Shown here: positions 9,901 to 55,323 of the stretch, piece after piece
Position numbering within the stretch: the first letter of the stretch is position 1
Layout of the letters: each line of letters opens with the position of its first letter
Assembly: GCA_964187785.1 (NCBI GenBank)
Contig: OZ076409.1
Span: 7,070,001-7,134,000 of the forward strand
Source: Amphiscolops sp. MND2022
Taxonomy: Eukaryota
Direction of reading: 5' to 3'
DNA: 64,000 bases
Translations under genes and position numbers: made by a program
The notes under the pieces: generated by a model
The model's database searches: none
What the model was told of the DNA's origin: nothing
The model's input: the letters and a program-made list of their open reading frames with translations, nothing else

Positions 9901-10676
9901 TAAAAAATTTTCGAAAAAATGAAACATTTTAACAGTCTGTTAAAATGTTTTATTTTTTTTTCGAAAATATTTTAAAGACTCCAAAGGGTCCTCCCTTCAA
10001 TTGGTTTGATATTTTGCAACAGAACGAATGGTAAAAAATCACAAAGGGTCCCTTTTCAAAGATTTTTTGGCCTTATGAGACTGGTAAACTTTTTCGAAAA
10101 CAGAATTGATTGTTTTGCAACAGAATTGATGTTAAAAAATCTCAAAGGCCCCCCTTTACAGTTTTCGGCATTGTGAGATTTTTCAAAAAGAATAATTTAC
10201 GTCGCAAACTTAGGTTTTCTCCGGCCCAGCACCCTACATCCGATTTTTTTTCAAGACCGGTGTTTTTTCTACGCGACGGTTTTTTCTACGCGACTTTTTT
10301 AAAGAAATTTGTTTTCATCGAAGCCCCTCTTTAATTTTTCAAGAAACGAAATGTTTTGCGAGCGTAGAGGAATCCTCAAGGTTTTCGGCACTATGCGACT
10401 TACTGGAGACCTTCATCAAAAAAATTTCGAATTTTTTTTCCTCAATTTTCCGTGTTTTTTAGGCTTTCCGTTGAAAAAAATGGGTTTTTGCTGTTTCCAG
10501 TTGGGGAAGAATGGTTTTCGAGACTTATGTGCATCCCTTCAGGTATTTTTGGCGCTGTAAAATTGATGAAATTTTAACAATGTCCTTTTACCATTTGTTC
10601 TCTGTATGATATTGCTCATTTGGTTTTCTTCAAAAATCGCAAGTGTTTGCGAAGCACTGCTCCGCCTCTGTGTTAA

Positions 10677-13633: not shown

Positions 13634-15580
13634 ATGACTGTCTGTGAAAATGCACAGAAAGAAAACGAAGACCAAAACAACAATGCGCATGTAAACAACC
13701 TGCAAAACACCCGTCCAACTTCTAACAGCTTTGAAAAAGGATTGGAACCCGGAGATGTGATTTGGGCCAAAGTGTCTCATACCAGTTTTTGGTGGCCGGC
13801 GGTTGTAATATCGGATTCTCAGTCAACGTCAGAAAAGGACAATGCTATCAATGAAATCACCAGCAAGCAAAAGCAGTACCACGTTTCAACATTAGGTGCT
13901 TCTGAAGACCCCCTGGAATTTCACTGGGTCAAACCCACTCAAGTTGTCAAGTACAAGTCGTCTTATGACTACCAGGCGCTCAGTACCAAATCACATAAGC
14001 TTCGCAACGAGAACGAAAGCACAGTGATTCCTAAAGAGTTGCGACAACGTTGGCGACGCGCTAATATTGATGCCATTGAATTGAAAAGCACGTTGGACCT
14101 CAAATGTCGGCTGGAGAAGTTCAAAGGTGGCTTCAAACAACGAAGATACGCTCTTCCCGAGGAGGCCGTGAAGACATTGCATTTCGAAAGGAAAACAGAT
14201 CAAGCGTTGCCATGGAGATGTCGGAAAAACTGTTCCTTGATACGAGCATTGCGCCATGTCCGCAAACGCAAGTACGGAGATTTGAACTCGGACAGTGCCG
14301 ATTCTTCCGCCGACGAGTCGTTGCAATGTCCTTCGCCCTCTGTTCGATCGGAAGTTTCAGATGACTACAGAAACCAAACGAGTGAAACTGAAACGGTTCT
14401 GAGTGACAACAGTTTGCTGGAACGAAAGAAGGCAAAGCGGAAACTCAAGTCACTGTCAACTGATCTCGCGCCTCAAGAAACTACGTCAACGTTGGAAGTG
14501 CTCTCCAAAGATCCGGAAATGCTGGAAAATGAAACCAAGAAAAGAGCCAAGTTTAGATGGCGCGAGCGCTCTGTCCTGGCATCTTACGAGTGGTCTGACT
14601 TCATCAAAGAGCCAAGCTCGTATAAAAATTGCGTCTGTAGGTTATGTGAAACGAAGGGGGACCTATTGTTATGCAAAACATGTGTCAGTTTCTATCATCG
14701 CAGTTGCTATAGTTTGACCTACCCGAAGAAAACAATTGGTGATGCGATTAGTTTTATGTGCCTAGATTGTCAGGAATCCTCAGTAGCTTGTTTTTCATGC
14801 GATGAATACATCACAGATCTCACACACGAAAGCGTCAAGCTCTGTTTAGTCAAATTCTGTCAGAAGGCGTACCACGAAAAATGCATTCAAAAGTATAAAG
14901 TGAAACTAGACAAAGATTTGGAAGATGCTCCAAGTGAGAAGAGTTCTAAGTTTGTTTGTCCAAGGCATGCGTGTGCCTCGTGCTACACCTCAGACCCGCA
15001 CGATTCCAACTTTTCTCAGGGAAAATTCATCAAATGCCACCGATGCCCTCTGGCATACCACACCAATAACGACGACATTTGCATTCCCGCTGGCTCCAAT
15101 ATCCTGTCAAGCACCTATTTGGTTTGCCCATTGCATTTTCCATCCTCAAGTGTCAAAAAAATCAACGTCAATTGGTGTTTCTTTTGTTCCTCGGGAGGCG
15201 ACTTGGTATGTTGCGAGTACTGTCCGGCTGCGTTCCACAGATCCTGTTTGCCTGAGGATGAAGAAATTCCAGACGCAAACCACTGGCTTTGTGAGAACTG
15301 TCGTTGCGGAAGCTTCCCGAAGTACGGAGACACTGTTTGGGCAAAACTTGGCCTCTACCGCTGGTGGCCTGCAAACATTTCCTGGCCTTGGTCTATTCCT
15401 AATTCTGTCATGCGCGCCCCAAACCACATGGGCCAATATGTCGTGGAGTTTTTCGGAACTCACAATTTTTCCTGGTTGCCCGGAGACCGTGTGTTTCTAT
15501 TCGAGGAAGACGACGAAAAGAAAACCAAGGTTGCAACTTCCTTGGGTCTTAACAAAAGCTTCGAAATTGGCATGAAGGAA
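13634..15580 (+). CDS. NSD: NSD/Mes-4-family histone H3K36 methyltransferase, coding segment 1 (PWWP1, PHD fingers, PWWP2)
   Basis: PWWP motifs GDVIWAKVSHTSFWWP and GDTVWAKLGLYRWWP...VEFFGTHNFSW; Cys/His PHD fingers (CRLC..CKTC..YHRSC; NVNWCFFC..GGDLVCCEYCPAAFHRSC). The ATG follows acceptor-like tttcagttag. Homology ends at the MITE starting at 15581; the exact donor is uncertain. Confidence 0.93.
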
Positions 15581-15934
15581 CAGAGTTTTGAATTCGTTGA
15601 TCAGCGATTCAGCGAATTAGCGGCGACGCAGAATTTTTTCAGCGATTTTACTAACGGTTCAAATTAGCGGCAACTGATAGGTTGTCCAAATACTAAATTT
15701 CCTCGAAAAATGGACTGTTTTAAAATGAATTTCCAAAAATTCCAACTCTTACACTTGTAAAACTCACACAAAGTGAGAAATTCTATTCTTTTTTTTCTTG
15801 CAAAAATTGGAATTTTGAAACATACTTGAATTCAAACACTTGATAGTTTGAAAAAAAGTTTTTTAGCGACATAGCGATTTTGATATTAGCGGATTTAGCG
15901 ATTAGCGACAAAAATTAGCGATATCAAAACTCTG
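15581..15934 (+). mobile_element. hAT-like MITE (family CAGAGTTTTGA) inside NSD coding sequence
   Basis: TIRs CAGAGTTTTGA / TCAAAACTCTG; perfect 8-bp TSD TGAAGGAA at 15573-15580 and 15935-15942. Confidence 0.93.
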
Positions 15935-15942
15935 TGAAGGAA

Positions 15943-16618
15943 ATAACTGCTGCTTACAAAGCGCAGTGTTTGCGAAACGAGGAAAAGGTTCTTGAGGTCC
16001 AGAGAAAACAAGACAACGCGTCCAGACCTGCGAGCTACCGATACCTGTCACAAAACAGGCCGGTTCATCCGGTGAAAATCCGGACGACAACTGTCGATGA
16101 ATCATCCGTATGTTCGTGTAAAGCCACCGACCCAAACCCATGCGGACCGGATTCGAATTGCATGAACCGGATAACCTACATAGAATGTCATCCGGCATCG
16201 TGCCCTGCTCTGGATAAATGCCAGAACCAGAGGTTCAGAAATTTCGAGTATGTGAACACGGAAGTCTTCAAGTCCACCAACAGAGGCTGGGGTCTTCGTG
16301 CAATGGTAGATGTCAAAACTGATGTGTTCATTGGCGAGTATTGTGGAGAACTCATAGATCGTGCTGAATGTTCTCGAAGAGTGACCCAACAAAATTTCAG
16401 CCAGAATTACAACTTCTATTTCTGTGAACTGGATAAAGACAGAGTGATTGATGCTTCGAAGAAAGGAAACCATCTGAGATTTTTGAACCACAGCTGTGAG
16501 CCCAATTGCACGACGCAAGTTTGGCTGGTTAATGGCGATTTCAGAGTCGGTGTTTTTACCATTCGCGACATCGGTGCTAACGAAGAGCTAACGTTTAACT
16601 ACAATTTTGAAGCTCTTG
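15943..16618 (+). CDS. NSD: NSD coding segment 2 (end of PWWP2 helix, AWS, SET domain)
   Basis: AWS CSC..CGPDSNCMNR..IECHPASCP..CQNQRF; SET RGWGL, FIGEYCGELI, RFLNHSCEPN, ELTFNY; canonical donor CTTG|GTAAGT at 16619 (phase 1). Start given as the base after the second TSD copy. Confidence 0.93.
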
Positions 16619-16784
16619 GTAAGTTGATGATTAACAATACTACTTTTCGTCCTACTACTAATATATATACAACCAGGCAAACTTAACTTTCACCGGTTTT
16701 TAGTTGTAGCTGTTTGAAATATAGACTAACTGTTATTGTGGATTTTTCTTCTTTTTTAAGGAAAAAAATTGGTTTGGTTGGAGC

Positions 16785-17107
16785 CAGAGTTTTGACACCG
16801 CTGAACGATTTTTTTTCACAATCACAATTCAAATTAGCGGCAACTAAAAGATTGTCCAAACTCAAAATGTCCTCACAAAGTTCCTGGAGTTTCAAAATGA
16901 ATTTCGAAAAATACCAACTGTTCATTTGTAAAAGACCCAGTATAAACTTCTTTCTCGTAAAAACTGAATTAAATTAATATATTATTTTAAAACATACTTG
17001 AAGTCTAAACGTTTAATAGTTTGAAGAAAAAGTTTTTCCGTGAAATTGCGATTTTGAAATTAGTGGTTTAGCGATTAGCGAAAAGAATTAGCGATGTCAA
17101 AACTCTG
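16785..17107 (+). mobile_element. hAT-like MITE, CAGAGTTTTGA family, intronic copy
   Basis: Same TIRs; TSD GTTGGAGC/GTTGAAGC. Confidence 0.9.
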
Positions 17108-19864
17108 GTTGAAGCTGCCAAAATAGGTCTTCACTAGAAATCCCATGAATCTCCGGCAGCCGTGGTATGATTGCCTAGTGATGAGAACATAATTTCTAGA
17201 CAGGTCTTTTTCAGTACTAAGCGCGTGCCATTCAAAAATTATTTTTCAAACCAAGGTAGCTAAGTGTTTCAAGTGCGAGGTTTCTAGACAGGTTATGGGC
17301 TCGACAGTTACAATGTTTAACAAGACGCCCGTCAAGCCAGAAAAATTCTAGGCTCTAGCCCGGGTTCGAACACGCCACCTCCTGTCTGCCAGGCGGACGC
17401 TTTACCAACTGGGCCACGATGACTAAAACATCCACAGACAATGGGGTGACAAAATGGAGATTTGGCAGAAAAAATGTATTGAATATGAGTTCTGTGCTTT
17501 TAACCATTTCATTTTTAAACGACTGAAGAAAATTCAAGTTGGATGTTCATTCCAAACATCAAATTCGTTTATTTTTCCGAAAACGATGATAATTATCATT
17601 AAAGTGTTCATTTTTTTCTTGCTTTTAAGCAATGTCTTTTTTTTTGGGGGGGGGGAGGCGTTTATCGTATAAGGTTGAATTAGTTAGAAGCTTTCAAGTA
17701 TATTCGAATCGGTCATTTGTGTTCATCGTAGGATGAGTGTTATCTAAGAGGTGGAAAACAAGAACTATAATATCGTTTCATGATTACTTTCCCTGGATCA
17801 TTTTCCTATCTAGTCATACTGTTTGCTTTGCTACCTTTGAATTAGATTTCATTCAAAACTCTTTCTCAAACGTTCCACTGAACCTTGGCTCTTTAGGTTT
17901 TCTGTTTTAATCCATTGAATGCTTTTCCTATCAATACCGAACTTGTTACATTGATGGTCAACTCTTGTTTGTTGCTTGTTTCCTGGAAATGGTGGTTTCT
18001 GTGCAAACTGGAGAATTTTTTCCCGTTTGTATTTCATAATATAGGAAAGAGTTTTTTCTCGGCCGGCGTTTTCCTGATTTTGCCTTAGTGTAATTTCATG
18101 CTCAAAAAGTTGAGTTTATTCGACAGAATTTATTGACGATCTAATTAACTAACGCGCACACTTTTTAGTCGGCGCTTTTCGAAGAAAAACGCAGACTATA
18201 GTAGTGACTTCTTTTTTTTAAGACCAACGAACTGACAGATTTTATAAAGAGTTAGCTGAGCTGACTTCACTGCACTAACAGTAACTGCAACGCTAGCTAT
18301 CACTGCTAGCACTTGGCATAGAGGTTAATTAAGCTTTTTGAGGTCTGCCAAGCAGAAGGACGTGGGTTCGAGTCCCGTCCTTGATCAAATTTTTTTGTGC
18401 AGGTTTTTTTCGGCTTTGTGAGATTTTTTCGCAAATTTTTTTAATGTCTCCAAAGGGTCCACCCTTCATTTTTTTTTCTATTTTGCATAAGAATGGATGT
18501 TCAAAACCTCCCAAAGGGCCCCTTTTACAATTTTTCGGCACTATGCGACTTACCGGAGACCAAAAAATTTCGAAAAAAATTCAAAAAAATTCGGATTTTT
18601 AAAAATTTTTCCTCACGCGGGTACTGTAGAAGAGAATACTTGACACTTTGAAGTCCTTTTGCTATTTTTGAGCCTTAGATATGGCGCCGACTTGGGCCGT
18701 TCCCGGCTTGTTTAGTTAACTGTGTCCAAGACTAGTATTTCCGTCCTATCGGCGCCTGCGTCTTATCGAACGGTTTTATAAATTCATGTTAACTAACTCA
18801 GTAACTGATGCGTTCCTACAAACAGTAATTATGAAACATTTGTATGTGAAACACGATTTTATGGACGGAGCATTAATTATGGATGTATCTCTTTTATTAG
18901 TTACTGAGTTTCGAACCAATTTAGAAAACAGCTGTGAACGGTTCCTTGTAAAGGTATCTTTCAATACATTTGAATCCGCCTAATTCGTATTGCTAGGGAC
19001 CGACTAAAATAGTACGAATAATGAGAAATACGAATTAACGGATGATACTACTTTGATAGTCGCGAAATGGGGATCTCTGATACATAGGAATCAAACGAAA
19101 ATCCGAATTATCCGGATACGAATATTCCGGAGTTGACTGTATTGAACATGGTCTCTAATGAGACAATTCGATTTTTGAGTTGACTTTTTTCATTGCAGAT
19201 TTTCCGAAAGCTGACCTTTTTGAGTACTTTAGGCCTTGTGGGGCTGATGAGAGTTTTCGCAATAATTTTGAAGTGCTGATAAGAGTTTTTGCTCGGCACT
19301 GAGCGACATTTTCTCGAAAATTTTCATCTTGTCTTGGCACCCCTTCACTTTTTATTACGTTATCGGCTTGAAAAAAGTGTTTTGCGATCTTGAAGGGTCT
19401 CATTTTGGGTTTTTCGGCACTGTGAGACTTTTTCAGAAAAAAAGTTTTTTCAAAATTTTGTGTTTTTGATGTTTCGAGTTAGGGAAAAAGCGGTTTCCGA
19501 GTCTTATGATTTCTGGTATTTTTCGGCACTGTAAATTGATGAAAAATTTCACTATGGTGTCTCTTTGCATATTCAAAGCTCTTTGCTCTGTTTCAACCTT
19601 GAGCGGGGCGCCGACTCGGGTCGCTCCCGATTTGTTTTAATTTTATTTGGCCTTGTTTTGTTTTGCTGAGATGGTCTCGCGCCACCATGGAGACTGCTTT
19701 TGTGACTACTTTGAGAAGTAATAGGTACTTTATCATTGTGTTGAGAGACTTTAAAGTCGCATTTCCATTATGTGTCTGCTGCATTATCAAAAAACGCTTG
19801 TGTGGCGGCGAACACTGATGCCAAAAACAGACACGATAAATAATAAAGCACTGCATAAAATATA

Positions 19865-20311
19865 CAGTCGTGGCAAAAAGTTCTCGTAGTGAAAATTGAA
19901 TTTGCCAATGACATCAAAAAAGTCGTTATAACTTTTTATTGGGTGAATGAAATAGAATGAAAATTTAAACAGAGATTAATAAAAGCTGGTACTACCACCA
20001 GCCTTAATGACAGATTCTATACAATTCGGCAACGAGGCAAAAAGTTGCTTGAGTTGCTTGAGCGATTCGAGGCATATCAAAAGTTGTATAAAGTTATTGA
20101 GATTGAAATTAATGCGTCCATAATTCAATAACATACTTTCAATGTTATGAAAAATTATTAATACGGAAGTTATAGCGGAAATAAAAAACTGAATGATATT
20201 GCATAGTGTACAGTTTGGTTCTGTGAATTCTCTAACTTCACAATGCCGGAAGCTTTGAGTCAGAAAATCGTTTTCCTTTTGTTTTTTTCCTAGTTTCAAA
20301 TATTCACCCAA
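19865..20311 (-). mobile_element. Tc1-like transposon remnant (far end not defined)
   Basis: TA|CAGTCGTGGCAAAAAGT Tc1-type terminus; the minus strand ends LFASLPNCIESVIKAGGSTSFY*, like a Tc1 transposase C-terminus. Confidence 0.65.
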
Positions 20312-23300
20312 GGTTTTTCTGACTGATAACTATGTTCAAATCATTTGAATGGAGTGGATTTTAGCCTTCTGTTTTTATTCGTGTGATAGATGGTCTAAAT
20401 GTTGCAATAATTGCGTAAATGTCCAAATTTGACTAACTCGTTTTTCTCAATTTTTCTTCTGTAATGATTTCAATTGATAGATAACTACTATTAGCATGAT
20501 TTGCATGGAATCCATGCTCGGGTTTTTTTCAGAAACAATTGCTCGAAAACAGGGATAATTATCGTCTTTTGACCTAATTTAGGATAGTTTTCTCATCGTT
20601 CCGCCCCTTTTGGAGATTCAAGGGGAATCCCGTTTCGCTTTGTTTTTAGTCGGCCATGCCGATAGAAATGCCGATTATAGTCGTTGTTTTTTTCAGACCA
20701 ATGAACTGACATATCTTTATGTTCTGTTAGTTCATTTTCATTATTTGTAGCAAACTTTTTTGGCCTAGCGGTTAACATGATTCTCCGGGTCTGGTGACGG
20801 GGTCTGAGAAGCATGAGTTCGTGGGTTTGAGTCCCGCACTGAAACAATTTTTTTATGCCCGTTAAGGTAGAGAAAAGACTTTTAGGTATTTTGTAGTCGG
20901 CGTTTTCGAAGAAAATGCACAACTCTTACAGTGGCTAGTTTTTTTTCGTCAGTTCAACGCGATCGGTCCACTTTTCTACATTGCACTTTTATCATAAGTA
21001 CTTAGTACTTCATTTTGAACCCATCCAAACCCTCTAACATGAAATACAAAACCATTCCCAAGCAGAAATGTCCTCTTTTCCACTTTTTGACACTATAGGA
21101 CTTCCCTTCTTTTTCGGCTTTGTGGGACTTTCTCGAAAGTTTTTTAATACCTTAAAAGGGTCCCGCCGTCAATTTCTTTTCAAATATTTTGCAACAGAAT
21201 GGATGTTAAAAAAATCTCAAAGAGTCCCCTCTTTCTGATTTTTCGGCACTTTTAGGCTGCTCAAATTTCTCAATTTTCGTGTGCTATTAGGTTTGCTCAA
21301 TACATATCTACCAATATTTTTTTCGGATAATGACTATCCGATTTTTTTTTCGGTACTATGCGACGTTTTTAGTCGGCGCTTTTCCATCCAGTTTTTTTTG
21401 TTTTTTTTTCTTCAGACTACAATCCTCACACTGATTGGTCCACATTTCTTACAATTCTTAGAATCTTGAAATCTTACAAAAAAGCTTGCCAAGTAGTATT
21501 TTAACATCATCTAAGAAACTCAAAGGGACCAAAGGTTACTCCCTTAGAGTACTTTCGGCTGTGAGACTTTTTTTTCGAAAAAAAAATTTTCCCCAAAGGG
21601 TCCCCCTTCAATTTTTTGGGAGTTTTCCGACAGAACGGATGTTGAAAAATCCCAAAGGGTTCCCCCTTTCAGTTTTTTCGGCATTGTGAGGCTTTTTCTC
21701 AAAAAAAATTTTCACCAAAAGTGCCCCTCCAATTTTTTTTATGATTTGCCACAAAATGGATGAAAAATCTCTGGTGTCCCCTCTGGTGCGCCAATTCGGT
21801 TCAACTTCTGGGTTTTTCCGGTACCGTAGAAGAGAATACTTTGACACTTTGAAGTCTTTTTGCTGTTTTTGAGCCTTAGATATGGCGCCGACTTTGGCCG
21901 TTCCCGGCTTGTTCTTATTATTTTCCGCCCATATTTCATATGGGAAAGGAAAATATTTAAATCAAACGGGTTTTTTTTTTTTTTTACAAAATTTGCCAAG
22001 ATTTTATTTATATTTAAATTTAAGGGTGTTACCCATAGAATTCAACCCACATAAATTTAGCTTCGTGCGATATGTATTTGTAGAGATTTTTGAAGTTTTT
22101 TTAAAAAATGACGAAAATGACGAAAATGACCCCTTAATGACAAAATGACCCCGAAAATGACAAAAATTCCCAAATTTCTCATTTTTAAACATTTTTATGC
22201 AATTTTTGCCATTTTTTGAGACACCGCGAATTAGAAAAATGGACAAGATGAATCGAAGCTTTCTTTTCTTCGAACTTCTCAGCGTTTTTATAGTGCATTA
22301 GTTATTCTTGAGCCTCAAATTTATGTAGTTGTAGAACAGTTCGGGGCGGAAAATATCCCGCTCCTCAGCGGGCGTCTTGTTTGTTTTTATCCCCCATTCG
22401 ATTTTTAGGCCTTGTGGGGCTCATGAGAGTTTCGGCACTGAGCAACTTTTTGCTCGAAAAAAAATTCATTTGGTCTCAGGGTACCCCCTTAATTGTTATC
22501 ACGTTTCCGACTTGAAAAAAAGTGTTTTGCGATCTTGAAGACACTATATCAGGAAAAAATCGTTTTTTTTTCAAAAATATTGTATTTTTTGATGTTTCGA
22601 GTTAAGGAAAAAGCGATTCTCGAGACTTATGGTATCATTTCTGTACTTTGCAACACTGTAAATTTGATGGAAAATTTCACACTATGTATATCCACTAGCG
22701 CCCCTTTGTATATTCAAAACACTTTTCTCTGTTTGAACCTTGAGCGGGGCGCCGACTTGGGGCGCTTCCGGGTTGTTTTAGTTGTCGCTTCCATTGATAG
22801 CAGTCTCGTCTGCGCCGATAGAAAGTGTCTGTAAAATAGAAGTTTTGATCTGACAAAGTGTCTGTAAAATAGAAGTTTTGATCTGACATGTGACATTTTC
22901 GAAAGTTGGGAGCTTTTAAAACGAAAATTTCCGCTTTACGAGTTTTCTGCCCTGATTTTGACACTATCCACTTTCTTTCATTTGTCAATTTTCCGAAGAG
23001 TTTTGGATCTTCCTAGCGATTTTTTGTTCTATTCTTGTCCTTTGTCTGGGATGATACTTTACAGGTAATTGCATTTGCTTTCATTGCCACGCGTAGGTGG
23101 GCGTGACTGAATTACGTCATTGGAGATGTCATTCATTTTTAATCCATCCACTAACGGAAGCTGTCCCAAAATTTGTTTAGGGTTTTTGTCTGATGAACTT
23201 CCTAATCCAAAACTATTTTGGGTTTTTGCCTGATGAATTTCCTAATCATTCGTTCAAACAGAACTGTTACATTTAAGATGAAATTCCGAGTAAAACTTTT

Positions 23301-26300
23301 TTTTACTTTTTTGGTCGGTGCGTCTATGAATTTTTGTCGTCACTTTCTTTTAGTCCCCTAGTAGTGACTAAAAGTTATACAAAGTTCTATTATTCACCTA
23401 AGATCTAAAAAGCCTAAGAACGTCTGAAGTCGGCGCTATATCTACTCTGTATAACTTTGTATAACTTCTATATACTTTGTATAACTTAGTAAGGCTCAAA
23501 AAGCGCAAAACATTTTTTTTGGAAAAAAAACTTGAAATTTTTGAATTTTTTTCTTTCGAAAAATGTCGCATAGTGCCGAAAAATGTAAAAGGTGGGACCC
23601 TTTTGGATTTATTAACATACATTCTGTTGCAAAATATCAAAGAACGAAAGGGGGACCCTTTAGGCACGCCCGGTTTTGTAGGTTTCCTTGAAAAAGTAAA
23701 AAATGAAAGGGGACACTTTGGACTAAGTTTGCCTTGGCCGGACTTGGCCTTAGGTGGTTTCAGGAATTTTTCTAAAAAGTGGACCGATCGGTGTGAGGAT
23801 TGTAGACTGAAGAAAAAAAGTTCACTGCTATAGTCGGGCATTTTTCCTTAAAAGGAAAATGCGCCAACTAAAAATACAAATTTTTCAGATATTTCTCAAA
23901 ACAACGTAAGCATATTTTTAAAAAGCCTTCTGATTCGCGATCGGAGCACCGACTAATGGCCCTTCCGGCTTGTTTCACTTATTTCAATCAAATCAGCTAT
24001 TATGTCATATAAGATAGCTCAAACTATAGGTTTTTGGGGACTTTGTTTTTTACCCATCTCCAATTTATTTTGGTCCAATGAGATAATTGATGTCAACATA
24101 GTTCTGCATTGATTGACAGTTGAAAGTTACAAATTACGGATGTTATAACGGATAAATTTTGCGTTCGAATAGGGGCCTTATACAATTCTGACTTGTTTGA
24201 GACGTGAAAATTTGCTCTTTTGAAGAACAATTTTAAAAAATTAGGGTGATTTTTGCTGTGAGTGTCAAAACAGCTGTAGATACAATCCTCTAAGTATTTT
24301 CAACCGTATCAAATGCTTTCATTCGTGCAAGAATTTTTCAAGAATAATTTTTTCGTGTTTGGGGGAGGAATAAAAACAATGTTTATCTAGGGGGCGAGTA
24401 GAAAACGTATTCCGGTTTTCGACACAATATCCGCAAAGTATCATAATTTCAACTTGTTTCTTATCGACATTTTTAGTCGGCACTTCATGAAGTGAAACAC
24501 GACTATTATAGTGACTCTTCTTTTTCAATCCACACGTACTGACCAAAATAGTTCTAAAAGTTCTACGAAATTTTATGGTATCAAGTTGAACCATTTGGCC
24601 TAACGAACTGAACCAAAAAGGTTTTTTTTCCGCGTAACATACAGTACCGGGTGAGACTAAAGGGTACCCTTTCAGTTTTTTTCGGCATTGTGAGACATTT
24701 TTCTGAAAAAAATCCCTAAAGGGTCCCCCTTTTAGCGCACCAATTCGGTCGAACAGTAAAAGAAAACTTGACACTTTGAAGTCCTTTTGGTATTTTCGAG
24801 CCTTAGATATGGCGCCGACTTTTGCCGTTCCCGGCTTGTTACTTACTCCAAACTGTTAATTTGGGCCGTTGAAAATTTACAAACTGACATCCAAATTTCC
24901 GAAATCAGCGTGATTTCACATTTTTGATTCCAGCTGGCGAAATCCAACAATTAGACAATGAAAAGTAACAAAATAGACATTCAAGATTAGCTTACGCTAT
25001 ATAATATTTTACAGAACAGGTAAAAGGTAGAAAGAATGATAATGCTGCCGCAAACTTTCTGTATGCTAGCAGTGGTCCCCCAGGGATTAGTAAAATTGAA
25101 TGTCGAATTGTGAATTTCGGATGTATTTCTAGAAAATTTAATCTTTCATCTGATTAGTTCAGGAATTTTGAATGTCGTTTCGCAAATTTTCAACGTCCTA
25201 CGCTGTAATTATTACTAATTGACGACTGATTACTGGGAAAATAGTAATGACAGAAGTATTTTAAATTTTAGAAATCAATTCTGTATATGATGCTTCAAGT
25301 TGATAGATTTTTTAATTGGAGTTCCGTTGTACATATAAATTAATAGGAAGTAATTTATATTACTGAATTTGATTTTTCAATTGTGATGGATCTTTTGCCG
25401 CAATGAGCTTGCTCCCACTGTTTGATGGGCTTCAAACTTCTATAGAGTCTTAATTCGAAGTAGCGTTTTTGAGGCTTCGAGCGAGCGAAGCGAAGCGACG
25501 AAGTCTCTATTGTTCCGCGTTTACTAGCGTTTTGGTTTTTTTTCGCGTGACATACCCTCTGCATTTGTATTAATTGAAGGCTATTTTCTCAGAGCCTATT
25601 TTTCCGCGACCATCCAAACTTTCCAAAAAGAAACGCAACTTGATGCTCTTTCTAACCGTGTAAAAACTTTCCGAAAATTTTCCACCGGCGCGATTTTATT
25701 AGCTTCGAAAGCGCGAAATTTTCGAAAATTTTTAGGGTTTTTGTCGATTTTGCTATTTTTCTTTTCGCAAACCACAGCGAATTGGCCCGATGTAGGTACT
25801 AACCGACGTAAAACGATGTTTTCTTTAATTTGGTGAAAGTTTTTTTATCCTAGAATTATTGGGCTTTGCGAAAATGACCATTAAAAATAGGAAAAATTTT
25901 CGGTTTTTTTGCGTAAAAAATTTCCCAACCTATTTTCAAGTAGCAATCAGTTCTAATCCAAGCAGTGGTGTTTCTACTCGACGACAGGTCTGCTTAGCTG
26001 CCCAAAGTTAGAAATTGGAAAGTCACAACATTTACGTCGGACAGATAGAGACAAAAAAGTTTTCAAATTTTTTGAATTTTTGATAAATTGCTCTCTTTAT
26101 TCAATTTTGTAAAAGTTTTGGCCTATTTTCTCGGAGCCTAATACTTCGAGACCATCCAAAAACTCAACAAATTGTTGGAACTGAATTTGTTGGTGAAGAT
26201 TTAAATGTTGTTGGATTTTCGGGCAGTTCATTGTATATTATACAAATTGTGCTTTACTACGAATCTTGAAATAAATGAATATTTGATCTTTCAATTTTTA

Positions 26301-27536
26301 ATTATTCATTTTCCAAACTAATCTTAGGAAGGAGTGAAATAGACGAAGTTACCGGATCGGTCTTGTAAAAATGCATAGATTGCGGTCTGATTACCCCTAG
26401 TAACCCTCCTACTGTCTTATTTGCACGGCTGTTGTTAAAAATGCTGACTTCATCCTTGGAAGGTTTTTATTTATTTATACTGCTAGTAGAAAATGTAAAA
26501 ATGCTCGAAGACCTATCGGCAATGTACATTGAATCATATACTCCATAATTGCTCCTTGATTTGCTTTGTCTCATGCCTGTAAAATTTTCGGTGAATAGTT
26601 TTTTTGTCCATTTTTGATGTCGGAAACCAAAGTTTTTTTCAGACCTCTCGATGTATGGGTTTTCGAGAGTGAGATCATATTGGACCACTGGAGTACATAC
26701 TCACCGTTAGTTATTGATGATGTGGTTGTTTGAAGCGTAAAACCGCGAAATTTCCGTTCTTAACGTATTCTATCCAGTGAATATCTGCACAGAAGGTATT
26801 ATGCATTACCGCAATATTCCTGAGAGATTTGATGTCATATGCAACGATTAAATCAAGACAACACTAAGTTATATTCACACCTCGCTGTGCAATGATATTC
26901 AACTACGTTGTATTGAAAACAAAAATGATTTCGGATCTTTTCGTGATTTTGCCCCATTCGCAAATTTTAACAGGTTATTCATCCTCTGGTGCCCACTGAT
27001 GCTGGAAGGTTGTTTGATGCACAATTCAGCTAATTTTTAGAACTGAAAGTATACTTGCTAGTGATGGCACGTATCAACCGTCCTATTGATAACTAGGGCA
27101 GCCCTTCCTTTTATATAGTGGTAAAGGCCGAAAAAGTTATGCTTCATAGGATTAATACCCGCAATTCTTTTCAATTTCATTGTATTTTGAGCATTCTCGT
27201 GCCGTATATAACCTTAGCTATACGTCATAACTAATAACTTGGTAATATGGTTCAAATGCACATGATGATAGTCAATTATGGCTGCGGGACCTGTCGCTCG
27301 AAGCCGTGCGCAAATTCCTTTGCGCCTATGTTTTTGTTTAATTAACTTCCGAGGACTTAAATGACAAGCTGCTTTTTAGTTCGTTTTTGCCGACCTCCCC
27401 ATCTGTATTTTATTATAATAAAAAATAATGAAAAAAAATGAAAAGAATGGATTTTACTGGAGGAGAACTGTTGAAACTCTTGAACGTTTTCCGTCTCTAA
27501 TTTGACCTCTAGTTTTGATATTCATGGTCAAAAGTG

Positions 27537-27850
27537 AATACTGTCTCAATCTTCCTGATGAAAAGGACGAAACTGGCGCTGGCGATATCAGTGAAACTTC
27601 GCATTCGAAACAGGGTTCGCATGTTTAAAACATGCCGTGTTTTAAACGCGTTTTAAACATGTTTTAAACAGAGTTTTAAACATGACAAAAACCTTCATTT
27701 CTTTCAATTGTTTGTAGTCGGCGCTTTTTGCTTTTAAGGAAAAATGCCCGACTCTTACAGTGACCTTTTTTCTTCAGACTACAGACCTCACACTGATCGG
27801 TCCACTTTTTAAAGAAACTACTGAAACCACTAAGGCCAAGTCCGGCCAAT
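27537..27850 (+). repeat. Local duplicate of NSD exon end plus adjoining MITE/HINE (copy of 29583-29899)
   Basis: Near-identical sequence from AATACTGTCTCAATCTTCC to GGCCAAGTCCGGCCAAT. Confidence 0.92.
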
Positions 27851-28452
27851 TATTTTCAGACCTGAATCTTACTTTAATTGAAAGTAACTTTAATGGAACA
27901 ATGATGACAGTTGAAAGAAAAATGAGAAACTTCCTGCATATATTTTCAAGGGTTGAGAAACAAGCCGGGAACGGCATAAGTCGGCGCCATATCTAAGGCT
28001 CAAAAATAGCTAAAGGACTTCAAAGTCAAGTATTCTTTTACAGTACCCAAAAAACCCAAAAGTTGAAGCGAATTAGCGCGCCGGGGGCCCGCCAGCGGGC
28101 CCCTGGCGCGCTAAAAGGGGAACCCTTTCGGATTTTTTAACATCATTTGTTGCAAAACATATTCCAGAAAAATGTCTCACAATGCCGAAAAAACTGAAAG
28201 GGTGACCTTTAGTCTCGCCCGGTACTCTATGTTAAGCGGAAAAACAGGAAAAACCTTTTCGGTTCAGTTCGCTAGGCCAAATGGTTCAATTTGGCACCAT
28301 AAAATTTCGTAGAACTTTGTAGAACTATTTTGGTCAGTTCGTGTGGATTGAAAAAAAGAGTCACTATAATAGTCGCGTTTCTTCGAAACTTCATGAAGGG
28401 CCGACTAAAAAAAACAGGACGGAGTCCCGCATTTTGAGTTTTTTTGTTTCAG

Positions 28453-28755
28453 GTGAAACGAAGATCCGTTGTTTTTGTGGTGCCGAGAGCTGTTCGGGAT
28501 ACATCGGCAGCAAATCAAAATCCACTGCTGACGCTTCCGCTCCTGTTGCTCAACAGCGATCAAACCCGAGAGGCAGAAAACCGAAGCTGAAATCGTCCAG
28601 CATCACGAACAGTAGTTCAAACGCCTCGTCTGCTTCGTCAACCAATGAGAGTGAAGATGTTTGTTTCCGATGTGACGAGGGCGGAGAATTGTTGATGTGC
28701 AGTAAGCCGAAGTGCTCCAAAGCTTACCATTTGGAGTGTGTCGAAATGAAGGAAG
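28453..28755 (+). CDS. NSD: NSD exon (post-SET, PHD5 N-part)
   Basis: Acceptor tttttgtttcag| with phase 1 matching the 16619 donor; CFCGAESCSGYIG post-SET; EDVCFRCDEGGELLMC..CSKAYHLEC; proposed GC donor AAG|GCGAGT at 28756. Confidence 0.9.
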
Positions 28756-28774
28756 GCGAGTGTGTCGAAATGAA

Positions 28775-29418
28775 GGACCATGTCATCTATCCCCCCCAGG
28801 TACACCTTGTTGGGAATCCCCCCCATCCAACACGAAAGCACATTTTGTTCTTGAATAAAAATATTTCACTAATAAGAGAATATCATATGAATGTATATAC
28901 AGTCAAACTCGGATAAAAGAAACTCATTGGGCGGTTAGAAAAGTGTTTTTTATTCATAGTTCCTTTTATCAGTTGTCATATTAACGTACGTAGAAAGTTT
29001 GTCTTGCATAAAAAAGGAGTAGTGAAAACAATGCTTATATCCGAATGTTTCTTTTATCCGTGTTTCTTTTATCCGAGTTCGACTGTACTTAGAGGATTGT
29101 CTCTACAACTGTTTGGACACTTCATGTAAAAAATTACCATAATTTTTTGATATCATTGTCCAAAATAGCAGAAATTCACGTTTGGAACAAGCGAAAATCG
29201 TATAAAAAGCCCCTATTTCAGCGCAAATTTTATCCGTTATAAAATCTAATGAGCAACTTTTAATTGACAGTCAATGTAATGGATAGGATTATGTCGACAT
29301 CAAGTATTTTATTGGACCAAATTTTCAACGCAAGCGGTGTCGACATAATGGTATTTGAACCTTCTGTCTTATTTCCCCCGCCTCAGTTAGGGGAGGGGAG
29401 AAATAGGTGACATGGTCC
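28775..29418. mobile_element. GG..CC-terminated MITE (GGACCATGT family) forming most of an NSD intron
   Basis: TIRs GGACCATGTCATCTAT / ATAGGTGACATGGTCC (15/16 match); internal sequence matches the reverse complement of 52315-52767. Confidence 0.9.
28900..29085. mobile_element. TA-TSD Tc1/mariner-pogo-like MITE nested in the 28775-29418 element
   Basis: TA|CAGTCAAACTCGGATAAA ... TTTATCCGAGTTCGACTG|TA; the empty site is visible in the 52315-52767 copy. Confidence 0.9.
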
Positions 29419-29420
29419 AG

Positions 29421-29660
29421 GCGAGGTTCCCAGAGGTCGATGGGACTGTCCCTGGCACTATTGCGACATTTGCGGGGCCAAATCTGTGTACCATTGCAGT
29501 AGCTGTTACAACTCAGCATGCGATCAACATTACAAGGGTCTCATTATTGTCAGCGATCTGTCAACAGGGGTGCTACAATGCAAATACTGTCTCAATCTTC
29601 CTGATGAAAAGGACGAAACTGGCGCTGCCGATATCAGTGAAACTTCGCATTCGAAACAGG
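29421..29660 (+). CDS. NSD: NSD exon (PHD5 C-part and C5HCH)
   Basis: After ccag| the frame reads (G)EVPRGRWDCPWHYCDIC..YHCSSCYNSACDQH, the NSD PHD5-C5HCH signature; proposed donor CAGG|GTTCGC at 29661. Confidence 0.88.
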
Positions 29661-30114
29661 GTTCGCATGTTTAGTACATGCCGTGTTTTAAACGCGTTTT
29701 AAACATGTTTTAAACAGAGTTTTAAACATGACAAAAACCTTCATTTCTTTCTTCAATTGTTTTTAGTCGGCGCGTTTTCCTTTTAAGGAAAAATGCCCGA
29801 CTCTTACAGTGACCTTTTTTCTTCAGACTACAGACCTCACACTGATCGGTCCACTTTTTAGAGAAACTCCTGAAACTGATAAGGCCAAGTCCGGCCAATG
29901 CAAACTTAGTGCAAAGGGTCCACCCTTTCATTTTTTACTTTTTAAAGGTAACCTACAAAACCGGAAAAACTAAAGGGTCGATTTTTTCGGCACTATGCGA
30001 CATTTTCCGAAAGAAAAAATATTTTTAAAAATTTGAAAAAAAGTTTTGCGCGTTTTGAGCCTTAGATATAGCGCCGACTTTAGACGTTCTCGTCTTGTTT
30101 TATTCCGAACCCTG
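29657..30114. mobile_element. hAT-like MITE (CAGGGTTCG family) inside NSD coding sequence, with nested HINE at about 29762-30099
   Basis: TIRs CAGGGTTCG / CGAACCCTG; perfect 8-bp TSD ATTCGAAA at 29649-29656 and 30115-30122. Confidence 0.9.
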
Positions 30115-30123
30115 ATTCGAAAG

Positions 30124-30437
30124 ATGGCAACTTGGACGTTGATGAAATTGCTAAGAAGTGTTTGAACAGTTTGTCCGAGAGTCTCATCAATATGCTACAC
30201 TTGAACGTGAACTTGAACGATTCTAAAGAGGCTGGTGCTACTGAAAAGAAGGCTAAAGAGTTTTGCATCGATTCAGACTCCGAACCTGATTGCGACAATG
30301 CTCCAGAGACGGAAAATGAGTCACCCGCCGAGAAAACATTGGTCGAAGCTGCTGCTGCAAAATCAGCCGGAACTGAAAATCTACGCTCCGAGGAAACTGA
30401 GCTGAAAGCAGAAACTTTATTGAGCCCAGAGTTTTGA
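30124..30437 (+). CDS. NSD: NSD probable terminal coding exon (acidic tail)
   Basis: In frame with the previous exon once the 29657-30114 MITE and one TSD copy are removed (..SHSK/DGNLDVDEIAKK..); acceptor AAAG|AT phase 1; stop TGA 30435-30437. Confidence 0.72.
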
Positions 30438-30737
30438 CACCGCTAATTAGCGAATTAGCGGTCTTGCAGAATTTTTTCCTGGAAAAAAATTTGAAAATTC
30501 CTCGGAAAATACACGGAGTTTCAAAGTGAATTTCATAACATTCCAATTCTTACCTCTGCAAAACCCACACAGTATGAAAAATTTTGGTCTTTTTTTCTTG
30601 CAAAAACTGAATGAAGTCATTTTAAACATTCTTGAATTAAACGTTTACTAGCTTGAAGAAAAAGATTTTCAGCGAAATAGCGATTTTGAAATTAGCGGTT
30701 TAGCGATTAGCGAAAAAAATTAGCGATGTCAAAACTG
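30427..30737 (+). mobile_element. hAT-like MITE, CAGAGTTTTGA family, overlapping the NSD stop codon
   Basis: TIRs CAGAGTTTTGAC / GTCAAAACTG; TSD ATTGAGCC/ATTGAACC. Confidence 0.88.
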
Positions 30738-33700
30738 ATTGAACCCATGAGAAAGATCATCTTCAACTTCTAATATCAAGTTTTAATATCGTTGAAAACT
30801 TCTTTGTTTTTGCTCTTTGAGTTTTTATCGCGTAGCATCGTTTTTTGAGGCATCTTAGCATTGTCTTTGTTATACAATTTCTGTGATTAATCTTTGATGC
30901 GTTTGTTCAATTTTTGCATCTTGTTTTTGTACGTCTTACATCTGTAATTATCTTAATTTACTCTCTCGATCGAACAGTGTTTGAAAATGGAGCTAGGTAA
31001 AAAGTAGTCGAGCTTCGAGATTTTATCGATGTGATGCACGCTATTTATTATTCAAGTGTCTCTCTGAAAGCGTTTGTTATCTAAAAAGTTTTGATGATTT
31101 CTAAAATCCAATTTCATAGATTAGTGATTTAGTGGTATCAAGTAAGCCGTCAGAAGATTTGGAGAGTCTTGAGTCTCAATTCTGTTTCGACGATTAAAAA
31201 TGTCTGGGTCCGAAGCTTCGAGAAAGAAATCTTCCGTCAGTGTTAGAGACGTAAGTCGTTATTATTGGTGAATAATCTTTTTATGAAGTGTTGAGTGGCT
31301 TGGAGCGATTTCACGCCTAATGGTTTTATGAGCCCCATAAATTTTACTTCGATGCAAACTTGTAACATTCAAAGTAATAGATATATAAAATTTTCTGCGT
31401 TTAAAGTTTGACAAAATTATAACAGGATTATGGCAGACGATGGAACTACTACGTCTGAGGTTAGTGGGATTAATTTTGTTGCAAGATTTTGATGATAAGA
31501 GAAGGAAGTTCAAGTTAAACGTTCACGAATTTCGAGTAGTGCCCTTGCGATTTTTAAATCCCGATATACTCGGCTTTTTTGAACAGACAGATGAGAGCAG
31601 CTCCGTGGAAGTTGACAAACATTGCGTAAAGCAACAATGCGTCCCAAGATCTAAAAAACAACAATTCGTCCCAAAATCCAAAAAATAATAAATTCGCCCC
31701 AAAATCAAGTCGTTAAAGATCTTATCCAGTATCTTGATCGGAAATGTTGATTGTGAGATCGTCGACTTCGTAAAATCAATCCTTCCAGTTGCGAGGGTCC
31801 CTTCATCTTACCTAGTATTAGATACGAGCTGCAACGGTCCAATTACTGGTATCTTACCTGCCATCGTGCGAATTTGATATGGAATAAATTGTGTTTCTGG
31901 AAAACAGAAGGACTAAAAGGAAGAATTCTGAACCTTTGGATTATTTCAATAAAGCTTTTAACGACCAGTCAAACCTGCACCTGAACTTTCATTTGTCTAT
32001 GTAACTTTTGTCGACTTAGAAATCCCATCCCAGAACTCAACATTGTGTCATTTTGGGAGAAATCTTTTCGCTCATGCGTAAATTCTTGGAGATAATAGTA
32101 AAATCCAAAAAAGCGACAATTCGTCCCAAGCATCTATTCGTCCCACTTTGTGGTAAAGAAAACTCTTGAAAAAGATTTTCAGACGATACTGCATAGCATT
32201 GCATGCCTTTTCACGGAATATTGACATGATGTCTTCGAAATCAAGAAAATGGGACCAAAAAAGCAAAAAAATGAGCGCAGCTTTTCCGTTTTTCCTGTTT
32301 TCGTTTCTGGCCCTTCTATATCCCATTGGTATTAACATTGGGTCAGAGTGGCCCTAGCATGTGTTGAAGCATGCCGAAAAGCAATCAGAGACACGACGCG
32401 TGCAAAGTTTTGGCGCAAAGTCCGGAGCCAGTGCGGCGAAGCCCTGATTCTTTTCTTTCGAACGCTTTATAAATCGTTAGTCGGACTTGAATAGTTTAGG
32501 AGATATTGGGGTTTAAAGTTTAAGCACCCGATTTTTGGATGGATCCAAAATTTTCCTGGTCAACTTAAGGTTAATACTTTTGTAATAATGAATCCGGAAC
32601 TAATATTTCATTTAGAGGGAGGCGAATTGCTACGAATTGTCGCTTGGGATGAATTGTCGCTGAACCAAAACATTGCTCGCTATTGGAGACCGAAAATCCT
32701 CAATGATCTTGAATAATCCTACAGAATGATCGTTTGTGGAGTCAAAACAACAAGCTTGCTGGATAATCCCAAAACTATTTTGTATATTAACTAGCACTTG
32801 ATGGACTCTTTTCAGATCGCCATTAGTCAGTTTCACGGACTAAAATTGTTTTTATTAAACTAAAGGCAGTATGATGTGTTAGAACATTCGGTCTTTACTG
32901 GGGCGGTAACAGGTTCGAATCTCTCAACAACTCACCATTGTTGTGCCTTGAGTAAGTCCTTCCCATTGATCGGCCTTGACCAAATTTAGCGGAGAAAAGC
33001 AAAAACAAAAAGGGCAATGGTGAGCAGTTAGAACTTTGCGTTCTTGAGCAAGTGACTTCAAGCCGACCATTATATGGCTGCAAATATGGTACCATAGCTT
33101 GCTATAGGGAGTATTCAAAAGAGCGCAGACTTAGAAAAGTAGAACTGCTAATTCGACATCCACCCTGCTGAATTGGGAAAATGAACTTGTCGTCGAAACC
33201 ATGATTTCACCGAGTGCTCTTGCATAGAAAAGAGTATAATCAAATTTTCAATGTTTTGCAAATTTTGATTATATAAAAAGTATTAGTTTTCAATAAAGAA
33301 AAGTTTTGTAACGTCAGGAAGTAACTTTCGTGCTTCAGATTCATTTTCTATCAACTCCAGGTTTAGCGTTGGATTATTATTCGTAAAAGGCGTTACTTAT
33401 ATTTCATTTACTCTTAACCAGCCGTGGTAATTTAATCACCAAGTCATTCATTCGTGATTCATGAAATCACCATCGCACTGTAACATTCCGGGAACAGCAT
33501 AAATCGGTGTTTCTCTTGAGGCTCAAAAAAACGTACTTCAAATTGTCGAGGAACAACTGTTTTTGAGAAAAATCTCGAAATCTCAGCTTGTCTCAAAAAA
33601 TAACTATGGGAGTACGCTTTGGACCTAAAACAACTTTCAACAAGACGGGAACGTCTAAAGTCAGCGCTATATCTAACGCTCAAAAAGCGCAAAGTTTTTA

Positions 33701-52314: not shown

Positions 52315-52767
52315 GGACCATGTGTCGTATCCCCCCCCAAGCGGCCGCGGGGGGGGGGGGATAAGACACAAGGTTCAAATACCATTATGTCGACATCGTT
52401 TGCGTTGAAATCAAAAATAATTGATGTCGACATCCTATCCATTACATTGACTGTCAGTTAAAAATTGCTCATCAGATTTTATAGCGGACAATATTTGCGC
52501 TGAGACAAGGGCCTTTTTATACGATTTTAGCTTGTTCCAAGCGTGAATTTCTGCTATTTTGGGCAATAATATCCAAAAATTATGGTACGTTTTTTGCCTG
52601 CAGTGTCCAAACAGTTGTAGAGACAATCCTCTAAGTATTTACGTTCATATGATATTCTCTTATTAGTGAAATATTTTTTATTCAAGAACAAAATGTGCTT
52701 TCGTGTTGGGGGGGGGGGGGGTAATTAGCAACAAGGTGTACCTGGGGGAAAATAGAACACATGGTCC
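52315..52767. mobile_element. GGACCATGT-family MITE, intergenic copy (possibly Merlin-like)
   Basis: TIRs GGACCATGTGT / ACACATGGTCC; 8-bp TSD GTTTTGCG/GTTTAGCG; partial copies near 24040-24360 and 41180-41337. Superfamily inferred only from GG termini and the 8-bp TSD. Confidence 0.85.
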
Positions 52768-53930: not shown

Positions 53931-55323
53931 AACAAGCCGGGAATGGCATAAGTCGGCGTCATAGTTAAGGCTCAAAAATAGGAAAAGGTTATGAAAGTGT
54001 AAAAAAACTCAAAGTATCAAACTCACAAAAAGTATCAAACGTACGAAAATCCCAAACGACCGAACTGGCGCGCCAGGTTACAGCTAGCGCGGGCCCCTGC
54101 CGCGCTAAAGAGGGGACTCTTTCGCATTCTTTAACATCCCTTGTTGCAAAACATCAAAAAATTGAAGGGGGACCCTTTGGTGAAAAACGATTTTCCCATA
54201 AAAAGTCTCACATTGCCAAAAAAACTGAAAGGGAGGACCCTTTGGGATTTCTCAACATCCATTCTGTCACAAAACATCAAAAAAAATTAAGGGTGGACCC
54301 TTTGGTGAAAAAAGAGTTTCCCATAAAAAGTCTCACAATGCCAAAAAAATTTAAATGGAGGACCCTTTGGGATTTCTCAACATCCATTCTGTCACAAAAC
54401 ATCAAAAAAATTAAGGGTGGACCCTTTGGTGAAAAAAGAGTTTCCCATAAAAAGTCTCACAATACCGAGAAAAACTGAAAGGGGGATCCTTTAGTCTTTC
54501 CCGGTATTGTATGTTACGCGGAAAAAGGAGGAACATTTGGGATTTTTCAACATCCATTCTGTCGCAAAACAGCAAAAAAATTGAAGGGGGACCTTTTGGG
54601 GAAAAAATTTCCCGAAACAAAGTCTCGCAGTGCCGAAAAAAATTGGAAGGGGGACCCTTTGGTCTCGCCCGGTATGGTATGTTACGCGGGAAAACAGGAA
54701 AAACCTTTTTGGTTCAGTTCGCAAGGCCAAATGATTCAATTTGGGACCATAAAATTTCGTAGAACTTTTAAGAACTACAGTACTGTGATTAAGAAAACGT
54801 CCCCCGGGCGTTTTTAGGCTCGATTTTCTCAAAATCGGTTGGAATTTTTGAAAAACATCAGAGATAAAAGTTTCTTAGAATTTCATCTAGTTTACATTAG
54901 TATTTTTTTAAAATTTCTGAGACAAAAATTGAGAAAGTTACAAATAGCTGATTTTGAGCAAGGTTGTGACCTTTTGCCGTTTTTCTTATTTTTGACCGTT
55001 TTATCCACAGTTTTTTTTGACAAATTTTATGCTCATTTAACTCTCAAAAATCTACTGAATTGATAGATATACTTTGAATTCAAAAATGATCAACCGTTTC
55101 CGAAATATCAGGTTCAAAAGGTAAAATTTCCTAAATTTACGTGAATTTCTCTTCATGTGCCAATCAGAATTGAAAGTGAGAGCAAATAAACAATTTTGAT
55201 TGGCTGAGAACGTCACAGGGGGACGATTTCTTATTCACAGTACTGTATTTTGGTCAGTTCGTGTGGATTGAAAAAGAAGAGTCATTATTATAGAGTCGCG
55301 TTTCACTTCATGAAGACTAAAAA
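53931..55323 (-). mobile_element. HINE-A long copy with about 120-bp tandem core units and a nested MITE
   Basis: AACAAGCCGGGAATGGCATAAGTCGGCG start; repeated GGACCCTTTGG..AAAAAGTCTCACA units at about 54150-54660. Confidence 0.8.
54778..55245. mobile_element. TA-TSD MITE nested in a HINE
   Basis: TA|CAGTACTGTGATTAAGAAAACGTCCCC ... GGGGACGATTTCTTATTCACAGTACTG|TA; removal restores the HINE consensus AGAACTATTTTGGTC. Confidence 0.9.

Follow-up and report, generated by a model that had tools for sequence, protein, structure and literature searches.

The NSD-type gene and its inserts

The window analysed here is a stretch of 64,000 nucleotides from Amphiscolops sp. MND2022, probably an acoel worm (contig OZ076409.1, positions 7,070,001 to 7,134,000). 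It is repeat-rich eukaryotic DNA of about 37% G+C, from an assembly of 1.07 Gb with 13 large contigs. On the plus strand, at 13634-30437, lies a gene of the NSD type, with one copy of the locus in the assembly and an open reading frame (ORF) that starts at 13634. Its coding sequence (CDS) is interrupted five times: by one ordinary phase-1 intron, by three in-frame transposon inserts and by a fourth miniature inverted-repeat transposable element (MITE), E4, at the stop codon. The three in-frame inserts, E1 (15581-15934), E2 (28775-29418) and E3 (29657-30114), are non-autonomous elements with terminal inverted repeats (TIRs), and all three of their families make 8-bp target duplications. An earlier note on this DNA had taken three of four coding interruptions for DNA transposons; the TIRs, family copies and duplications found bear this out, and the MITE at the stop is to be added. 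Taking out 362, 665 and 466 nt, each time the element and one duplication, leaves a single stop-free frame of 1158 codons plus stop (about 1159 residues had been noted), colinear with the relatives and with all domains intact according to Pfam. The features of the gene and its inserts are as follows.

13634..15580, + strand: coding piece 1, 649 codons, with PWWP, PHD fingers and second PWWP (ORF list, Pfam)
15573..15580 (left copy) and 15935..15942 (right copy), no strand: target duplication of E1, TGAAGGAA, perfect 8 bp (sequence)
15581..15934, + strand: E1, hAT-like MITE of 354 bp, 14% from its family consensus, TIR CAGAGTTTTGA / TCAAAACTCTG
15943..16618, + strand: coding piece 2, AWS and SET domains (ORF list, Pfam)
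16619..28452, + strand: conserved phase-1 GT-AG intron, GTAAGT .. TTTCAG, 11.8 kb, repeat-swollen (sequence, paralogue comparison)
27537..27849, + strand: intronic duplicate of 74 bp of exon and the first 242 bp of E3, part of the nested repeat included (matches 29583-29898)
28453..28755, + strand: coding piece 3, ending at the putative GC donor; post-SET and first part of the last PHD finger (Pfam)
28761..28774, no strand: 14-nt filler, a copy of 28737-28750, between the left target duplication and E2 (sequence)
28775..29418, + strand: E2, MITE, 4.7% from its family consensus after removal of the nested element, TIR GGACCATGTCA
28900..29085, no strand: Tc1/mariner-like MITE nested in E2, TA at 28898-99 and 29086-87
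29426..29656, + strand: coding piece 4, C5HCH domain (ORF list, Pfam)
29649-56 and 30115-22, no strand: target duplication of E3, ATTCGAAA, perfect 8 bp (sequence)
29657..30114, + strand: E3, hAT-like MITE of 458 bp, core replaced by repeat R, TIR CAGGGTTCG / CGAACCCTG
29760..30082, no strand: abundant repeat R nested in E3, ends approximate, inverted termini AGTCGGCGC / GCGCCGACT
30123..30437, + strand: coding piece 5, C-terminal tail with a motif common with the Convolutriloba protein and the present stop codon (ORF list, alignment)
30428..30745, + strand: E4, fourth MITE, of the E1 family, duplication ATTGAGCC / ATTGAACC

Pfam identified in the exon pieces a PWWP domain, four PHD-type fingers, a second PWWP, AWS, SET, a further PHD and the NSD-specific C5HCH domain. 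This is the domain order of NSD / Mes-4 proteins (PWWP, PHD fingers, AWS-SET-postSET, C5HCH), as is also apparent from the alignment with an NSD-like protein of Convolutriloba, and a protein atlas look-up of the gene returned NSD-like features only. Judged by its sequence, the locus is a genuine gene for an H3K36 methyltransferase of the NSD type. The intron in the post-SET region consists almost entirely of repeats.

E1, E3 and E4 are hAT-like MITEs of 318-471 bp without coding capacity, with the termini CAGAGTTTTG and CAGGGTTCG; a short TIR beginning with CAG or TAG is what we take to be the typical hAT terminus. The TIRs of E1 are 11 bp long and perfect. Since E1 and E3 have the terminal CAGGGTT and an 8-bp duplication in common, their transposases may be related, and these two families are not fully unrelated, contrary to what had been supposed. 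The bounds given for E1 and E3 and their brackets of duplicated exon sequence were correct. Those for E2 need amending: the interval 28756-29420 is that of a GC-AG pair rather than of the element, and the bracket is no simple duplication. AGGCGAG is found at 28754-60 and at 29419-25, 7 of the 8 bp expected for the E2 family, and the filler, which copies the upstream-adjacent exon, creates a 20-bp exon repeat (28734-53 and 28758-77). We infer that E2 probably made a normal insertion at AGGCGAGG, after which a break at its left end was mended with templated filler. The filler has GAG and GGA microhomologies at its borders, resembles the scar of a repaired break and changes position +6 of the donor from G to T.

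The later insertions reported for two of the inserts are indeed present, one in E2 and one in E3. The MITE nested in E2 is missing from the E2-family copy at 52351-52767 and from 39 of the 39 other scored copies, so that the joint of E2 with the nested element occurs in 1 of 40 matches, that of the window. Copies of repeat R (termini AGTCGGCGC) are up to 99% identical over the first 70 nt. The intronic duplicate is 313 bp long and lies in the same orientation 2 kb upstream, in the big intron. Its exon part has one mismatch in 74 positions, its transposable element (TE) part 10 substitutions and one 3-nt indel in 242. It carries the exon/E3 joint, and E3 was therefore in the exon already about 4% of pairwise divergence ago; for the same reason, the duplicate was rejected as the origin of E3. 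E4 sits one base 5' of the original TGA, and the protein, formerly ..LLSP-stop at its C-terminus, now reads ..LLSPEF-stop there. The two copies of the E4 duplication differ at one position, two bases are lost from the 3' terminus of the element, and the 3' untranslated region now begins inside it.

Among the entries of the protein collection, P0004 (941 aa, 47% identical) is the closest relative; it is uninterrupted across the E1 site and stops precisely where the conserved intron lies. P0006, from the same cluster, is an NSD-like protein of 1221 aa named for the acoel Convolutriloba macropyga, which makes an acoel host probable, and P0008, of the same species, is a single ORF across the E2 and E3 sites. 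Within the genome, a paralogue on chromosome 10 has the conserved intron (220 bp, L067 7065-7284) and is continuous at both the E1 and the E2 site; a paralogue on chromosome 1 is a single ORF of 1774 codons. The comparison of intron positions with NSD orthologues, which the earlier note had suggested, thus gave no intron at any of the three insert sites in P0004, P0006, P0008 or the two paralogues. At the E1 site, the product of exact excision aligns gaplessly with P0006 and both paralogues, and a motif 3' of E3 is common to the window gene and P0006. To judge from these alignments, the inserts are TEs that entered the coding sequence in this lineage only.

The protein collection was searched with exon 1 and with the exon-3/E2 ORF, and the matches were confined to one relative, fragments derived from repeats and, from the window itself, unspliced ORFs; an allele with an empty site was not among them. 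A second, non-identical sequence (P0005), which lies on a different contig (327,501 bp), agrees at 673 of 677 residues, including 28 tail residues encoded by E1, and its frame is equally open. E1 is therefore not private to one haplotype or assembly. A second-assembly version of the P0009 ORF was not found in the collection, and the P0009 cluster, with one member, is uninformative.

Putative splice sites at the inserts

Near each insert, every frame-keeping GT/GC..AG pair was listed, together with all near-exact options with other dinucleotides. Candidate splice sites that keep the frame and come from the element or its duplication take a different form at each: an exact consensus GC-AG pair at E2, a weak GT-AG pair that leaves 3 nt at E3, and only a GA-AG pair at E1. 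Of the weak or GC donors that had been proposed, a consensus GC is present at E2 and a weak GT at E3, and E1 has no credible canonical in-frame sites. U12-type AT-AC ends gave no plausible option at the inserts. The intervals are the following.

15578..15939, + strand: hypothetical non-canonical GA-AG interval, the only exact-length option to remove E1 (AAG/GAACAG .. TGTGAAG/G; splice-pair listing)
28756..29420, + strand: putative TE-born GC-AG intron, 665 nt (AAG/GCGAGT .. GGTCCAG/G), whose removal restores ..LECVEMKEGEVPRGRWDCPWH.. exactly
29661..30123, + strand: putative weak GT-AG intron, 463 nt (AGG/GTTCGC .. TCGAAAG/A), with one added codon (Q; splice-pair listing)

The reading that we favour, which has about an even chance of being right, is that the gene is still needed and that at least E2, and probably also E3, is removed as a TE-born intron. 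Ordinary high-copy MITEs have entered the coding sequence four times independently, and the gene would have been kept under selection after at least some of these events because its RNA can lose the inserts. The E2 duplication AGGCGAG(G) would provide the donor AAG/GCGAGT on the left and the acceptor AG/ on the right; with both sites supplied in this way, splicing of 28756-29420 would restore the original mRNA exactly. E3 would be removed as a weak GT-AG intron, with the donor from the TIR (CAGG/GT) and the acceptor from the duplication plus one exon base, at the price of one extra codon; this option is in frame, and a chance fit of such a kind is not rare. For E1, the reading would need an unusual route of removal, through either the exact GA-AG interval or some weak site further off; the alternative is that E1 is a recent knock-out. 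The options beyond the GA-AG interval lose at least 16 residues of a conserved stretch or have very poor donors. That all three ordinary MITEs now work as introns, E2 as an exact GC-AG, E3 as a GT-AG and E1 as an exact GA-AG intron, is rather unlikely.

Of the three, E2 is the one that most likely works as a new spliceosomal intron, of the GC-AG type. Its donor matches the consensus at all positions except for the C at +2. The E2 site is also the sole AGGYRAG heptamer of the 3474-nt CDS, and only 2 of 3474 target windows (0.06%) give the E2 geometry. None of the 14 E2-family duplications that could be recognised contains AGGY. A position on the only AGGYRAG is to be expected if a needed gene could keep only insertions that can be spliced, and it would be unexplained if the gene were already dead when E2 arrived. 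The siting of E2 on the only consensus donor heptamer is thus a survivorship signal that can be read in the DNA. The anatomy, the restored frame, the lineage specificity and the splice-site geometry are all seen in the sequence, whereas the splicing itself and the continued function of the gene are what we infer.

The element families in the genome

The three families are ordinary high-copy MITEs. The E1 family has at least 3422 first-look candidates, and 39 full or near-full scored copies are 80-84% identical to the window copy (two partial ones 67-71%). For the E2 family the candidates number at least 3198, with 39 full or near-full scored copies at 88-93% and four partial ones at 80-89%, and for the E3 family at least 254, with scored copies at 89-96%. 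The expected 8-bp duplications recur in other copies: in the E1 family, 15 of 20 are perfect, four have one mismatch and the remaining one has no clear reading; in the E2 family, 9 of 16 are perfect, five have one mismatch and the other two have no clear reading; in the E3 family, all seven examined, of 20 fetched, have one. Further copies of the E1 and E2 families lie in the window, as the earlier note had stated for two of the families, and the only other one of E3 is the local duplicate. Among the E1-family copies L007-L026, at least two young subfamilies are seen, each about 96-98% identical within itself, next to old singletons about 12-14% from the consensus that have perfect duplications. 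Old E1-family copies may thus still be moving by cut-and-paste.

The idea that the genome generally tolerates MITEs in exons, and that these families act as intron generators in an introner system, found no support at the level of the families. No credible ORF crosses the excision joint in any of 20 E1-family copies or 16 E2-family copies, the copies tested being the matches most similar to those of the window; four of 20 E2 loci had been dropped because their ends were unclear. The three longest spanning frames, all in the E1 family (63/67, 55/70 and 63/44 codons), were called non-coding by eye only. A de novo scan for TIRs with an 8-bp duplication and an ORF across the joint recovers E1 and E3 of the window and is blind to irregular cases like E2. 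In 25 other loci (144,732 bases, with 36 ORFs of at least 200 aa covering 36,058 bases), it detected no genuine exonic MITE; these loci were picked via kinase-domain and NSD matches, and the test is modest. Two matches of the scan were low-complexity false positives: L069 (79 bp, GCTGCTGC) and the Ala/Gln-rich L080, in which the ORF runs into the supposed element. A kinase-domain match with internal stops (C7:49.179 Mb), suspected to hold a 362-bp insert, has an ordinary GT-AG intron without a repeat match. Among the kinase-domain matches in the genome, many fall within one ORF of 500-2500 codons, so that very long exons are common in its genes and offer large targets for insertion.

The density of exonic MITEs in the window gene, two detectable cases per 3.5 kb, is not general. 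With 0 of 36 sampled copies in credible ORFs, 36 kb of clean ORFs and clean paralogues, the data argue against a genome-wide introner system, and the locus is a single-gene case.

Elements of the maize Ds and dSpm groups in mutant alleles, known from work of around 1990, are spliced from exons, often imprecisely, through cryptic donor and acceptor sites near the element ends. They resemble the locus in being hAT-type elements with 8-bp duplications in exons; however, the alleles in question arose recently, in the laboratory or as mutants, and have leaky function, and the elements are not long-resident in a conserved gene. Another comparison is with the introners of Micromonas, Aureococcus, Symbiodinium and others, as described in PMC9860276 and PMC12130899. 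There, too, a short non-autonomous TIR element lies in a coding exon, and its splice sites come from the element and the duplication; the mRNA is left exact, as would be the case for E2, or with one more codon, as for E3. Introner families with TIRs and a duplication are described as taking one or both splice sites from the duplication, with the mRNA restored or a few codons added (PMC9860276). Several families may coexist in a genome and GC and GA donors are known among them, in up to 50% and up to 40% of the copies, respectively, of known families (PMC9860276), and nearly any kind of element is said to be able to generate introns (PMC12130899). The difference is that an introner family consists of many similar spliced introns, whereas here all cases lie in one gene of an animal, and their splicing is putative. 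In the tunicate Fritillaria borealis (Henriet et al. 2019, as described in the review PMC11282704), non-canonical introns derived from MITEs are likewise species-specific, and conserved positions have GT-AG introns, as does the conserved position of the window gene. However, Fritillaria uses mainly AG-AC or AG-AT ends throughout the genome, with an altered spliceosome, whereas no exact-length option with those ends exists at the present inserts and the six ordinary introns that could be read completely are canonical.

A 2022 survey reports introners in only two animal groups (PMC9860276), and a literature search that combined introners with acoels gave only unrelated work. The locus would be a sporadic animal case of TE-born introns, outside the family-level definition of introners. 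Intron gain in animals is rare and poorly documented.

Constraint on the gene and rival explanations

The rate of change of the window gene is not consistently raised. With one outgroup, it has 83 unique residues and the Convolutriloba protein 58; with the other, the counts are 65 and 82. At sites where the other three sequences agree, the window gene departs in 26 of 234 cases and P0006 in 17 of 225. In a model of neutral decay, the 1527 nt downstream of E1 would stay open with a chance of 0.004-0.02 at 3% divergence since the E1 insertion and <4e-5 at 8%, and the 543 nt downstream of E2 with a chance of 0.04-0.12 at 4.7%. Judged by divergence, the inserts are not fresh copies (E1 14.3%, E2 4.7%, nested MITE at most 93% identical to any scored copy, E3 duplicate about 4%). 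E1 is roughly equidistant from all sampled copies, the nearest scored one being 84% identical, and E2 falls among its family relatives, which lie at 3.1-7.1% from the consensus. Long-term neutral decay is thus excluded, and recent decay would fit the data too. The earlier note had set a separate NSD copy, combined with neutral evolution of this locus, against its own proposal: such copies exist, as the two clean paralogues, and the long-term neutrality does not hold.

The gene may instead be a recently disabled, redundant paralogue that has lost constraint and gathered MITEs, some of them re-mobilised old copies, while point mutations have not yet broken its frame; this is a real possibility, somewhat short of an even one. 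In that case E2 may at first have been tolerated, or removed by splicing, until E1 arrived and killed the gene. A number of observations count against the reading of a needed gene with TE-born introns or on the side of a disabled one. At E1, no credible canonical in-frame GT/GC..AG pair was found within a few codons of the ends, and the best generic splice scores there are about 0, versus 9.0 and 4.9 for the real intron of the gene. The putative acceptors of E1, E2 and E3 all lack a pyrimidine tract, unlike those of ordinary introns: six that could be read completely are GT-AG and have T-rich acceptors, and the acceptor of a seventh is of this type as well. No spliced product was found in the protein collection, only the unspliced genomic ORFs P0003 and P0009. 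The load of four MITEs, two nested elements, filler and a local duplication is peculiar to the window gene, as the paralogues and the 36 kb of other long ORFs are clean, and it fits relaxed constraint. Two other NSD genes are present in the genome, the intron measures 11.8 kb versus 220 bp in the paralogue, and the PHD finger of the window allele has an L where P0005 and P0006 have an S. Dating E1 by its divergence is unsafe: the old E1-family singletons L007 and L009 keep perfect duplications, so a re-mobilised old copy is plausible, E1 could be recent and divergence can overstate the residence time. At 1% divergence, moreover, an open frame over the 1527 nt downstream of E1 is not surprising (0.15-0.28).

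On the other hand, a disabled gene leaves the position of E2 on the single AGGYRAG of the CDS without explanation. There are zero stops or frameshifts in the 1158 codons, a long-term acceleration of the rate is not seen, and the second sequence, P0005, is open-framed as well. E3 has been exonic for about 4% of pairwise divergence, and the divergence of E2 is no lower than that of its other family members.

Removal outside the spliceosome, by precise somatic DNA excision as for the internal eliminated sequences of ciliates or by a structure-guided RNA route as in euglenids, is very improbable; no removal of this kind is known in animals. It would account for the fact that colinearity at E1 is restored only by exact loss of the element and one duplication. 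The CAG..CTG termini and border repeats also resemble the non-conventional introns of euglenids, which have CAG..CTG inverted ends and duplication-like border repeats; however, these belong to a protist lineage and their removal needs an RNA structure that pairs the ends (PMC11282704). The minimum-energy fold predicted for E1 with its flanks does not pair the ends, with a z-score of only -2.2, and thus gives a structure-guided removal of E1 no support. The six ordinary introns are, furthermore, canonical, and the seventh has a canonical acceptor. Least probable of all is that the inserts arose in assembly or are peculiar to the specimen sequenced, as a somatic or haplotype oddity. The single copy of the locus in the assembly would allow for it, but P0005, from another contig, has the same read-through into E1, and the elements have proper target duplications and ends typical of their families, as real transposition would leave them.

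If the junction 28755^29421 is true, E2 is a generic MITE whose own target duplication turned it into an exact GC-AG intron. If all three inserts are introns, the birth of introns has been caught midway in an acoel, and its spliceosome accepts a GA donor and acceptors without a pyrimidine tract. If the elements are retained in the RNA, the locus shows a redundant chromatin gene that decays by transposon load before point mutations. Either outcome bears on one gene only.

An abundant repeat with tandem-like units, whose frames read ..KGDPLGFFNI..KKSHNAEKTERG.., occurs at many places of the window, for example at 9398-9928, 24319-24855 and 53969-54817. Just 3' of the NSD gene, a short ATG-started ORF at 31203-31250 ends in a GTAAGT donor and may represent the initial exon of an adjacent gene.

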